A DNA stretch of 64,000 nt from Owenia fusiformis (taxonomy: Eukaryota), in NCBI GenBank assembly GCA_903813345.2, contig CAIIXF020000001.1:8494001-8558000 (forward strand), written 5' to 3'. Each line of letters begins with the position of its first letter. Within the stretch, counting starts at the first letter, position 1. The notes beneath the pieces are model-generated. The model was not told the origin of the DNA. It saw only the letters and a program-made list of their open reading frames with translations, and did not search any database. The translations under genes and the position numbers were made by a program. This document shows positions 7,301-10,300 of this stretch, piece by piece.

Positions 7301-10300
7301 CCTTTAATTTAAGAATGTGGACACGTATCACCAATGAGTCAGTGACCACTGATTTAATATTATCTAAGTAGCTTTAACACGGAGGATCAACTAAAAATTA
7401 GAGCACATGGTCCTTGCATCAGCATAACACTTCTGAAGACAGGATTTGCTAATATTTTGTTTTCTCGATTTTATCAAAATATTTTGCAAATTGATAAAAC
7501 AAAATGTACCACAATTCCATCTTTCGTATCATGGCCATGCTGATACCAGAACAAAGTTCTTCTGCTTCCAAATGATCCCCAGAGTATTAAGGTTAATAAT
7601 GAAAACGTCTTACCTCTCAATACTCTTTCTTCATGGCACCTCAGGAAATCCCAAACTCTCACCGTCCCATCATCGGAACAAGTCACAAATTTTTGGTCAG
7701 TCGGACAAAAACTATTATAGAGAGATAAAGACATTGTGGCAATTCATACAGAATAGTAGAAGTAAATAAAAAATGCTTTATTTAAGTACTATATAATATC
7801 AGAATTGGTGTTTATTCATTCAGCTATTTTATTTTGTTTCTCGAGCATGCATTATATAATATATATTATATATATATATAAAGAACTGTACATTGTGAAT
7901 ATATTTCAGTTTTATTTTTTATAATACAATTGACATTATTAACTAATAAACAATGTTGAATTAATTTAACCCAAATGCAATGTGAGATACTATGGCCATA
8001 TTTATATCTATACATATTTCATGTTGTGTGCAATAGCATTACAAATTGCATTTAGATAAAATCAACTTTTGTTATGTTGAAATAGTTCCTCCCTATACAA
8101 ATATCAATAATTATAAAACCACTTGGATGTAATTATGACCCTTGCGTACAACCCCTCTTAATATATAAGCCTAATAATGAGCCCTGCCCATATTTTGATT
8201 TGGATAGAGAGAAGATATTTCTTGATGTTGCGTCATCAGTCCCATCTTCTCCGATGCCTAGTAGCATGTTCCTCACAGCAGCTGGTCCTAGCTGATAGTT
8301 GTTATTAAACAAATGAACTAAATTACAAAGTTGACATACAAGTACACTATGGATAAGAGGAAATGTACAATGCAACAAGGCAAGTCCCTTTATGGGTACT
8401 GAGCCTGGAAAAATTTATGAGAGGAATGCTATGATCAGGTCCCTTTATGGGCCCTAAGCATGGGATTCTATTACAATAAGACTAAGAACAAGTCCCATTA
8501 TGGGCCTGAACATGGGAATATCACAACTGGGATATTTGTTGACTAAGAATAACCCAACTTTAAACCATTAATTATGAAGTGCACTATGGCATTGATGGAC
8601 TGCTATCCTTTATGGATGCTGTCATTATGATTATATCTTCACAAGAAATGAATTAAAAAAAACATTGGTTGAAATTTAGTTCCTTTATGGAATCAACCAA
8701 TATAACACTGTGATACATTTAATCAAGAACCTAAATGAAAAAAGATTTAACATCATGTATTTCAAATATTTTTCTCTTTGACATAGCAATCAAACAAAGA
8801 ACAAGACAGATTTCATTGTATTTTCCCATTTAAGTTTATTTCTGCCATTAAAAAAACTATTTTACTAACAGGGATGAATATATTTTTTTTTATTAAATTG
8901 TGACTGCTTTCCTTTATGGAATCACAGTACTCTAATAAGATCTGGTAGTGAGCTTAGGGTTTGTGTTAGGGATTTGAATAGACTTAAAATTGTATCTTTT
9001 ATTGGAACATGCAGATGGATTTAGATAAAACAACATAGCAAATTCTAGAGGTCAGGGATTCACATTGATTGAGATTTTTCAATTTGTTTCATTTATTTCT
9101 TGAATGAGAGTCACCCTTTATGGGTTAAGAATTTATTTTTCTATCTGTGTGTCAAGTCCTTTATGGACAGTGTTTTCACATAGCACTTTCAATATTTAAC
9201 AACCAGACAACACCTTTTCTTTACAGAATTTTCATAATTCTGATGCTTTTCAGATCAAACAACAGACATGTTTTGTTTTAGTTTGATGATTTTTTATTTT
9301 AATTAAAATGTTTCATTGACATTTAACATTCAACAACTTACTGGTTCAGAAAATTCTGGCGTATCATTTTAAGATTGAAGGGGCCCCCCGTTTAAAAATA
9401 TATTTATTCATTTCATTATTTTGGGACAGCCAATAGAAGATAATAATTTTGGTCCTCCTAATATAATATGTATGTACTTCATCCATAGCGTAACTAAACA
9501 GTGCAGTATAACAATAAAAAACAAGGCAATAATAGGCCTATAAAATATTTTAGGAACGTAACATGTAAATAAATATAACATATGTTTGAAATAATAAATA
9601 AATAGTTATGGTATATGTATCTAAAAATAATCTGAGGAATTTCAAAAGAAATCCATGATTCTATAAATAAGCGTGATTAAATGTGCCATAATTTAGTTTT
9701 AATTTAATCCTGTGATACTGCACTGTTATGAAGGAATGAGAATCATAGAAAAGTTTCATGGTGAATTGGCCTAAATATGACCTCCATGCCCACCTTAATC
9801 CTCGCACTGGGTCCTGATGGGCCTGGTACATCTTGACATTGTTCATATTAGACTGCCAGTATTTAACAAAGCCACCATGGTCAGCTGTAATCATCCACTG
9901 GTCGCTATGACTCCAGACCATACTTCTACATGACGTGTCATGAGCCTACAACAAAACACAAATTTGAAAGAGTTAGTATAACATGTGCCAGAATTCACTT
10001 CTTCTAATTACAATGAGTATTTATAATACATGTACTTCTTGTATATATAATTTGTTGGTTTGTTTAAAGGGATCTAAAATTGTATGTATAATGGTTTGAG
10101 AGGTTTTATGTTCAAGCGAGCTTTTAATGCTAACTTTCATAAAATATAGTTTAAACTGCGTTTAATTTCTCATAAAATATCATTTTAACATAAATATGTA
10201 AAACCACACATTTGTGTACATATGGAAAAAAAGAACATGCTTTCATATCTACATATGTACAAGTAAATTACAAGAGAACACAAATTGTGTAAATCCATGT

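Follow-up and report, generated by a model that had tools for sequence, protein, structure and literature searches.

The locus analysed here raises the question of what a series of short hairpins displaying AUAAA, the core of a polyadenylation (poly(A)) signal, does inside an intron of WDR33, the gene whose product reads that signal. The sequence is a 64,000-nt stretch of the genome of Owenia fusiformis (contig CAIIXF020000001.1, positions 8,494,001 to 8,558,000 of the forward strand), referred to below as the window; all positions without a locus name are those of this stretch. Eight hairpins were found within one intron of WDR33, which is encoded on the minus strand. A similar array was present in the same intron of two bivalve-like taxa, and judging by this recurrence it is probably a conserved control element of a short transcript.

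Gene structure and position of the intron

The exons flanking the array were located by tblastn and by joints in assembled contigs.

9794..9947, minus strand: WDR33 exon upstream of the intron, residues about 195-244 of protein P0001 (human WDR33 chains at E about 1e-21; tblastn; contig joint at 9794)
7712..9793, minus strand: array-bearing intron with 5' splice site GUGGGC (joint 7711->9794, 2082 nt skipped, CT..AC on the plus strand)
7613..7711, minus strand: WDR33 exon downstream of the intron, residues 245-278 of P0001 (tblastn; contig joints)

The N-terminal exon was 100% identical to the database protein WDR33 of Owenia fusiformis, an annelid (P0001), and the intron was placed after residue 244 of this protein by tblastn. 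Window positions 9796-9945 were aligned to residues 128-175 of the human WDR33 chain 6f9n_B, and positions 7606-7713 to residues 178-211. Since the two exons are contiguous in human numbering, no exon is hidden inside the array intron. The joint 7711->9794, with GT..AG on the minus strand, was observed in contigs of three of the four sequencing runs (X2, X9 and X4, all guessed to be RNA; X3 was guessed to be DNA). A preliminary description of this DNA, made from the letters only, had placed the array inside a WDR33 intron at 7712-9793; the exon matches to human WDR33 and the contig joint confirm this placement and its boundaries.

In full-length human numbering (chain 8e3i_B) the upstream exon ends at about residue 208. 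Human isoform V2 is given in PMC11019558 as a protein of 326 aa with a C-terminus of 118 aa derived from retained intron 6, so that it shares 208 residues with the full-length protein. The array intron of Owenia is therefore assigned to the position of human WDR33 intron 6.

Motif count and hairpins

Exact matches to the 9-nt motif CCTTTATGG were counted on both strands of the window. Eight were found, exclusively on the plus strand, and the array thus reads CC-AUAAA-GG in the minus-strand WDR33 pre-mRNA. Seven of the eight lie in the intron (starts at 8387, 8442, 8607, 8682, 8911, 9115 and 9158, within 8387-9166), where the variant CCATTATGG was also located, at 8495; the remaining match, at 6244, lies inside a WDR33 coding exon and has flanks that are not complementary. 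In 100 dinucleotide shuffles of the window the motif occurred 0.70 times on average (standard deviation 0.88), and eight or more copies were reached in none. Outside the array, variants with one mismatch were about as frequent as expected by chance (23 seen versus 17.0 expected; at least 23 in 7 of 100 shuffles), and the only non-array site within two mismatches that has a 4-bp stem was found at 31628 (two mismatches). Hairpins with a perfect 4-bp stem and a 5-nt loop numbered 498 in the window, six of them with the loop TTTAT; five of these six belong to the array, and the sixth, at 54402, has a stem made up entirely of A and T. The motif count confirmed the earlier report of seven exact copies and one variant within about 790 nt.

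The hairpins are given in transcript order, with the pair probability of the core in a context of 209 nt and the score in the covariance model R1 described below.

9156..9168, minus strand: hairpin 1, GUCC-AUAAA-GGAC; probability 0.86; R1 20.2 bits
9113..9125, minus strand: hairpin 2, ACCC-AUAAA-GGGU; probability 0.92; R1 20.1 bits
8899..8926 (core 8909-8921), minus strand: hairpin 3, UUCC-AUAAA-GGAA; probability 0.99; R1 20.9 bits
8899-8903 / 8922-8926, minus strand: outer helix of hairpin 3; flank-only shuffle z -2.57
8665..8700 (core 8680-8692), minus strand: hairpin 4, UUCC-AUAAA-GGAA; probability 0.99; R1 22.0 bits
8665-8672 / 8693-8700, minus strand: 8-bp outer helix of hairpin 4 across a 7-nt bulge; flank-only shuffle z -2.74
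8605..8617, minus strand: hairpin 5, AUCC-AUAAA-GGAU; probability 1.00; R1 19.5 bits
8494..8504, minus strand: hairpin 6, CCC-AUAAU-GGG, variant loop, member of the three-copy tandem; probability 0.00 (not predicted in context); R1 18.0 bits
8441..8451, minus strand: hairpin 7, CCC-AUAAA-GGG, tandem copy; formed in the 49-nt fold, probability 0.01 at 209 nt; R1 20.6 bits
8386..8396, minus strand: hairpin 8, CCC-AUAAA-GGG, tandem copy; probability 0.99; R1 18.4 bits

Each hairpin consists of a stem of 3-5 bp, in which the two pairs closing the loop are invariably C-G, and of the loop AUAAA (AUAAU in hairpin 6). Inspection of the flanks reproduced the stems named in the preliminary description (GUCC, ACCC, UUCC twice, AUCC and CCC three times); beyond CC/GG, at least one further Watson-Crick pair was present in all eight intronic copies and two in five of them.

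Orthologous introns in other animals

Metagenome contigs were scanned with P0001, yielding 41 loci with WDR33 exons. Many of the matches end at residue 244, which indicates that these contigs run on into the orthologous intron. The sense motif CCATAAAGG was present in four of the 41 loci, with five copies in L030, five in L032 (at the spacing of L030), seven in L033 and a single copy, with unpaired flanks, in L023. All copies in L030, L032 and L033 were located on the sense strand and within the intron after the same exon. L030 and L032 additionally carry a GCC-UUAAA-GGC variant with a 6-bp stem, which brings each to six copies. The L032 intron is 99.6% identical to that of L030, and L032 was therefore regarded as a second haplotype of the L030 taxon. 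The comparison of orthologous introns proposed earlier thus returned an array with paired flanks, in the same intron and orientation, in two bivalve-like taxa.

The exon translations of L030 and L033 are identical to each other, match the WDR33-like protein of Mya arenaria at 100%, and are 94-98% identical to the proteins of Mactra, Dreissena and Ruditapes. On these identities the contigs were assigned to heterodont-bivalve-like animals, the taxon labels of the metagenome loci being based on exon matches of 50 residues. The clade formed by L012, L023, L028 and L029 was left unplaced, its best named matches being at most 90% and coming from several phyla. Between L030 and L033 the exon nucleotide identity was 87%, with 64% at third codon positions (36% differ), and no blastn match between the two introns was obtained at E = 0.01 or better. 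As far as these sequences tell, the motif was kept while the surrounding intron diverged beyond recognition.

Covariation and covariance model

An alignment of 21 copies was prepared from Owenia (8), L030 (6) and L033 (7). The loop is AUAAA in 19 of the 21 copies, UUAAA in one and AUAAU in one, so that the first and the fifth loop column each hold A in 20. The two closing pairs are C-G throughout. The third stem pair is likewise formed in all 21 copies by three pair types, namely G-C in 13 (all bivalve copies) and C-G and U-A in four each (Owenia). The fourth pair is formed in 14 copies and the fifth in 10, counting two U-G cells. Neither the covariation score nor the paired fraction was reached in any of 500 column shuffles; with the Owenia copies alone, the covariation score was reached in one of 500. 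When the 3' partner was shifted by one column, the paired fraction fell from 83% to 39-51%. A stem with compensatory changes and an invariant loop was thus found, in agreement with the covarying stems with AUAAA loops of the preliminary description.

The covariance model R1 was built from the 21 copies and run on both strands of the window and the 41 loci (278,864 nt). At 18 bits or more it yielded 27 matches, all of them array members (8 + 6 + 6 + 7), and the next best match scored 14.5 bits. A covariance model had also been proposed earlier.

Relation to repeats

The three copies of lowest coordinate form a loose tandem with a spacing of 53-55 nt. Pairwise flank identity between copies was close to the background value of the intron (0.29). 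Longer stretches are common to two pairs of copies: positions 8598-8616 and 8902-8920 match at 95% across 19 nt, and 8680-8695 is identical to 8909-8924 across 16 nt. The unrelated flanks previously ascribed to five copies accordingly hold for overall identity and not for these two pairs.

No array was reported over the hairpin region by Tandem Repeats Finder. The best blastn match of positions 8300-9250 against the 64-kb window had E = 0.025, with no similar repeat, and R1 returned no copy outside the orthologous introns in the 279 kb searched. These three results bear out the view that the array is not a simple satellite. A single contig of the DNA run (run type guessed) spans 7887-9389. The Rfam scan of positions 7000-10500, also suggested in the preliminary description, gave two matches (E 1.3 and 5.8), both far under the gathering score, and hence no family at that score. 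The listed sequence differences within 8383-9168 comprise at least 26 single-letter changes and at least one deletion, all outside the eight 13-nt cores. Avoidance of the cores by chance has a probability of about 0.02 among the differences listed, about half of those in two long contigs being unlisted, and is taken as a hint only.

Predicted folding

Minimum-energy folds were computed for 49-nt windows, and pair probabilities for the 209-nt context. The core hairpin was present in seven of the eight sense-strand minimum-energy folds of Owenia, and the core helix reached a probability of at least 0.86 in six of the eight copies; among 20 comparable control hairpins taken from other parts of the window, 20% reached 0.85. 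Pairing added by the flanks beyond the 13-nt core was evaluated with flank-only shuffles and gave, for the Owenia set, a Stouffer z of -3.95 on the sense and -3.82 on the antisense strand, compared with a mean flank z of 0.14 for 29 control anchors in the same intron. For the bivalve-like copies, which are without outer helices, the flank z was near 0. Of the second helices described earlier for several cores, those around the copies at 8682 and 8911 were recovered in the minimum-energy folds, and the one at 9115 was not. The orientation of the array relative to the gene is constant in three taxa, though the fold energies do not distinguish the strands.

Read-through frames and the short isoform

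If the intron is not removed, translation can run on from the upstream exon. The features of this region are as follows.

9661..9793, minus strand: read-through open reading frame with a 43-residue tail (WAWRSYLGQ...NHAYL) after the junction-spanning R codon; open frame 9661..9945
8835..9408, minus strand: seven sense AAUAAA hexamers with first bases at 9408, 9298, 9137, 9097, 9003, 8894 and 8840
L012 1439-1512, L023 1501-1573, L028 3286-3303, L029 2405-2527 and L030 2165-2395, sense strand: canonical AAUAAA with GGC-loop-GCC elements

In Owenia the read-through comprises 44 codons, counting the junction R codon, and ends with a stop at 9661-9663. Most other loci have a long read-through frame, which usually starts with RW and whose tails are kept within clades. 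Database proteins of 241-319 aa were found in which the N-terminal region of WDR33, encoded by several exons in Owenia, is joined to the read-through tail. These short products include isoform X2 of Patella vulgata (300 aa), a Dreissena model (257 aa) and five proteins (P0009, P0020, P0025, P0033 and P0038, 241-319 aa) from Logan-assembly contigs of 1.1-1.6 kb. Database products ending in the tail indicate that a V2-like short isoform is widespread.

The read-through peptide was also compared among loci L003-L025. It is conserved within clades (e.g. RWD.L.T...TLDIQACFLV...) and often hydrophobic; examples are L008 4124-4391 and L011 1002-1494 and the proteins P0009, P0012, P0020, P0025, P0033, P0038 and P0039. 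This pattern suggests wide conservation, among invertebrates, of a V2-type short WDR33 isoform whose tail is membrane-like.

Poly(A) signals past the read-through stop

Each of the four sequences with an array has it downstream of the read-through stop. The distance is about 490 nt in Owenia (stop 9661-9663, array start 9168), 125 nt in L033 (stop 967, array start 1092), 8 nt in L030 (stop 838, array start 846) and 148 nt in L032 (stop 1510, array start 1658). The same stretch carries canonical signals in other loci. The pattern AAUAAAGGC-N3-6-GCCC gave nine matches in five loci, on the sense strand only and all after the read-through stop. L012, L023, L028 and L029 hold one or two copies of AAUAAAGGC-N3-6-GCCC(A) 41-430 nt past the stop, and L030 holds four elements of the AAUAAAGGC type 1.3-1.5 kb past it, two of which fit the strict pattern (about 1.4-1.5 kb). 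In these elements GGC can pair forward with GCC to form a mini-hairpin followed by CA, several with UUCG or UGCG loops, and the canonical AAUAAA is left free. The combination of AAUAAA with GGC-loop-GCC suggests a structured poly(A) site for the short isoform. In another clade (L003, L007, L008-L010, L014, L016 and L025) a conserved ..AAUAAAACUUGCCUC.. context was found about 60-90 nt past the stop in most loci (mostly 60-91 nt; 257 nt in L025). By position, then, the hairpin arrays appear to take the place that the short isoform's poly(A) signal has in other animals.

The hairpins and the AAUAAAGGC signals share the core AUAAAGG(C), and the documented poly(A)-signal variant CAUAAA is present in seven of eight Owenia and 12 of 13 bivalve copies. 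The array intron has the highest density of sense AAUAAA in the gene, with 11 per 2082 nt compared with 10 per 7880 nt in 12 other introns. Taken together, the tails, the database products and the AAUAAA hexamers past the stop point to a conserved intronic 3'-end region with a short isoform.

Contig depth was considered as a further source on an intronic 3' end and rejected, each contig having one depth only and contig ends not being RNA ends. The contigs of the 5' intron part (X2 9488-9823, X9 9673-9823 and X4 8244-9823) extend only 30 letters into the exon, one short of the 31 letters required, and are not counted as bridging the junction; their depths of 220, 300 and 10.7, versus 218-546 for spliced exon contigs, were not used as evidence. 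The same applies to the step down in X9 after 9092, where one contig stops 25 nt past the hexamer of hairpin 2 with 21 letters unplaced, this being a contig end. No weight is given to the stretch 8538-8819, which has no cover in X9.

Proposed mechanism

The eight hairpins are proposed to be cis-acting RNA elements of the WDR33 pre-mRNA and part of an alternative 3'-terminal region, which would arise by read-through into the intron and yield a short V2-like isoform. The loop AUAAA would represent positions 2-6 of the hexamer and the closing C position 1, so that the hexamer reads CAUAAA, a signal of low affinity. CAUAAA is bound by human mPSF with a dissociation constant of 780 nM, compared with 40 nM for AAUAAA, and makes up 1.49% of annotated human poly(A) signals (PMC12421377). 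The array may thus be read by CPSF, the specificity factor for cleavage and polyadenylation, through WDR33-CPSF30, as a cluster of poly(A) signals attenuated by structure. Higher CPSF activity would then lead to more intronic cleavage and polyadenylation and to a higher ratio of short to full-length WDR33 mRNA, and a share of the short isoform that rises with CPSF activity would amount to negative feedback. Judged on comparative sequence data, the array is tentatively interpreted as a multi-copy, structure-tuned cluster of weak poly(A) signals at an intronic 3' end that is read by CPSF and couples the short-to-long ratio to CPSF activity; we assign this interpretation a rough probability of 0.45. 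The preliminary description had proposed a structured, multivalent element coupling signal reading to premature 3' ends. This functional idea has gained comparative support from the orthologous arrays, from their position past the stop and from the AAUAAA signals found there in other animals. The motif, its covarying stems, its recurrence in the intron of three taxa, its position past the stop and the short read-through products of other animals are shown here; that the hairpins fold in vivo and bind CPSF, that cleavage takes place close to them and that feedback results is what we infer.

A stronger form of the proposal was considered, in which the hairpin mimics, in pre-organised form, the signal as bound by CPSF and the array is a high-avidity sensor of free CPSF that sets the ratio of short to full-length WDR33; we hold it to be improbable. 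In the mPSF complex, A1-A2 contact zinc finger 2 and A4-A5 zinc finger 3 of CPSF30, and a U3-A6 Hoogsteen pair is stacked between two phenylalanines of WDR33, as given in PMC12421377. In the C-AUAAA-G pentaloop, the U and the last A could pair on top of the closing C-G, which would leave A2 and A4-A5 exposed. The array would date back at least to the annelid-mollusc ancestor or would have arisen twice.

Several observations weigh against a CPSF-read signal cluster. The summed 49-nt minimum free energies of the 21 copies are similar on both strands (-185 sense versus -199 antisense) and only two G-U cells occur in the stems; because the fold energies are alike, the active strand is not decided by structure, and the modelled folds do not tell even whether RNA is the active form. 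The stems are short. In context, the core probability is 0.14 or lower for two of eight Owenia and three of 13 bivalve copies, and two further L030 copies reach only 0.60 and 0.69. The array is absent from 27 of 30 loci with at least 1 kb of orthologous intron, many of the 27 being near-duplicates of a few taxa; on this sampling it is not universal, and common descent and convergence are both possible. The read-through tail of Owenia differs from those of bivalves and human in being short and non-hydrophobic. The data of the Owenia RNA runs are contigs, which cannot show RNA 3' ends. The Owenia intron already has 11 canonical AAUAAA hexamers, which CPSF should favour over CAUAAA, so that the hairpins are not needed merely as signals. 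Moreover, position 1 within the stem and the closed loop could block CPSF binding.

Alternative explanations

The hairpins may instead bind another sequence- and structure-specific RNA-binding protein, their likeness to a poly(A) signal being incidental. Such a protein would act on how stable the short-isoform mRNA is, where it is located or how it is translated, or on whether the intron is spliced or read through. We regard this as possible and somewhat unlikely. It fits the same conservation, covariation, sense orientation and post-stop position, and hairpins that proteins recognise usually show what is seen here, a constant loop and two constant closing C-G pairs above stems that vary. In L030, moreover, the canonical AAUAAAGGC cluster lies 1.1 kb beyond the hairpins, which would place them within the 3' untranslated region and not at its end. 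Against it stand the lack of a known candidate protein and of an Rfam family, and the AUAAAGG(C) core common to hairpins and AAUAAAGGC elements, which speaks against an accidental likeness. A homotypic cluster of transcription-factor sites, acting in the DNA as an intronic enhancer or silencer, would account for a motif that is by definition kept on both strands and for fold energies without strand preference, and clusters of single sites are typical of enhancers; the sequence (C/G)CCATAAA also resembles the Cdx/posterior-Hox consensus. Such a cluster does not explain flanks that change and yet stay complementary (third pair in 21 of 21 copies, in three pair types). The 8 + 6 + 7 copies run in the same direction relative to the gene in three taxa, when factor sites usually occur in both orientations, and a position past the stop in each taxon would be meaningless for an enhancer. 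A DNA-level function is accordingly considered quite improbable. Hardly credible is the view that the array is a functionless, decaying local duplication of a small palindromic sequence, foldback or similar to a miniature inverted-repeat transposable element (MITE). The three-copy tandem with its spacing of about 54 nt, the 16-19 nt shared by two pairs of copies and the single orientation, as from tandem duplication, would be in keeping with such an origin. Flank identity, however, is at background while the 9-mer is exact in seven of eight copies, nothing similar occurs elsewhere in the 64 kb (best blastn E = 0.025), a DNA-run contig spans 7887-9389, and the corresponding intron of two other taxa, which cannot otherwise be aligned, contains the same motif array.

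Known motifs were also compared and dropped. The CArG box requires six A/T bases, and the motif has five between CC and GG; for a Cdx/posterior-Hox or CArG-like cluster in general, flank complementarity and single orientation argue against it. In comparisons by eye, the half-site of NFI (TTGGC-N5-GCCAA) differs, STAT and NF-kB sites differ in spacing or order, and the motif has another base in place of the key C of TCF/Sox sites. Sequence mismatch led to the dropping of the snRNA Sm site, the U12 branch site and miRNA seed matches, and a transposon excision footprint was dropped as the flanks are inverted and not direct repeats.

Other features of the window and the metagenome loci

In the 5' part of the array intron, a 17-nt inverted repeat (9497-9513 / 9711-9727, 94% complementary, 197 nt apart) brackets the read-through stop; a small MITE and a long-range RNA helix are both conceivable. 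In the next intron, the summed depth of contigs over the segment 6987-7127 lies between 7e4 and 8e5 in each of the four runs, with many loose ends, and this segment is a very high-copy repeat. Other WDR33 introns contain tandem arrays at 3779-4144 (42-bp unit, 8.7 copies, 94% matches) and 10415-11147 (145-bp unit, 5.1 copies, 91%). At 15288-16442 on the plus strand, an open reading frame of 384 aa matches Pfam RVT_1 at E = 1.5e-20 and represents a retroelement reverse-transcriptase fragment upstream of WDR33.

The sequence AGTAAGGTTTAT is common to the bivalve-like introns of L030 (about 509-520) and L033 (about 824-835), where it encodes SKVY in the tail. It contains GUAAGG, which resembles a good 5' splice site, 83 nt (L030) and 38 nt (L033) past the real GUGGGA site, and may serve as an alternative donor or U1-binding site. 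In L001 (295-2460), WDR33 residues 72-774 are encoded without introns, and this locus either belongs to an organism poor in introns or is a processed copy.

Significance and comparison with known systems

WDR33 together with CPSF30 reads AAUAAA, and both CstF-77 and PCF11 are known to be under feedback control through intronic polyadenylation. Among the papers listed in literature searches on WDR33 intronic polyadenylation and autoregulation, no description of such feedback for the signal reader itself was found, and of the papers listed for the motif, judged by titles, none concerned the hairpin element. If the proposed mechanism is true, the array would offer a compact and mutable RNA module (loop, stem and copy number) for the tuning of poly(A)-signal recognition by RNA structure; the V2-type short isoform of WDR33, so far studied in human cells, would be widespread in animals, and invertebrate models would allow direct tests of CPSF homeostasis. 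Should the partner be another factor than CPSF, the array is still an unnamed hairpin element retained in both an annelid and bivalve-like contigs, within introns that do not otherwise align.

The WDR33 intron resembles intron 3 of CstF-77/CSTF3 and PCF11 in that a gene for a cleavage/polyadenylation factor holds a conserved intronic 3'-end region and gives a short isoform. For CstF-77, PMC3708835 describes a conserved site in the intron together with feedback and a weak 5' splice site; PCF11 is treated in PMC6458999. The 5' splice site of the array intron is GUGGG in Owenia, L030 and L033. Unlike the single conventional signals of CSTF3 and PCF11, the WDR33 element consists of 6-8 hairpins with a variant hexamer in the loop, and feedback on WDR33 is a proposal. 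With human WDR33 V2 it has in common the intron position and about 208 shared residues (PMC11019558). The mollusc read-through tails are hydrophobic, as is the human V2 tail, from which the short and non-hydrophobic Owenia tail differs. For human V2 and V3, the accessible part of PMC11019558 places scattered conventional signals in introns 6-7 and exon 7 and describes no hairpin array.

Poly(A) signals presented in RNA structure also have a viral counterpart. The poly(A) hairpin of HIV-1 is a stem-loop that holds AAUAAA and damps use of the signal, and the WDR33 array may likewise present its signal in a structure through which usage can be tuned. The HIV-1 hairpin is single and viral, with the canonical hexamer partly in the stem, whereas the WDR33 array is cellular and multi-copy and carries the signal in the loop. 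The 3' untranslated region of the transferrin receptor has five iron-responsive elements, and boxB of phage lambda has pentaloops. As in these systems, the WDR33 hairpins occur in several copies, with an invariant loop and invariant closing pairs on stems that vary and still pair. They differ from them in having shorter stems (3-5 bp) and a loop formed by the core of a poly(A) signal, and in that the binder is a proposed one. By analogy, the WDR33 hairpin array appears closest in form to protein-binding hairpin arrays such as the iron-responsive elements.

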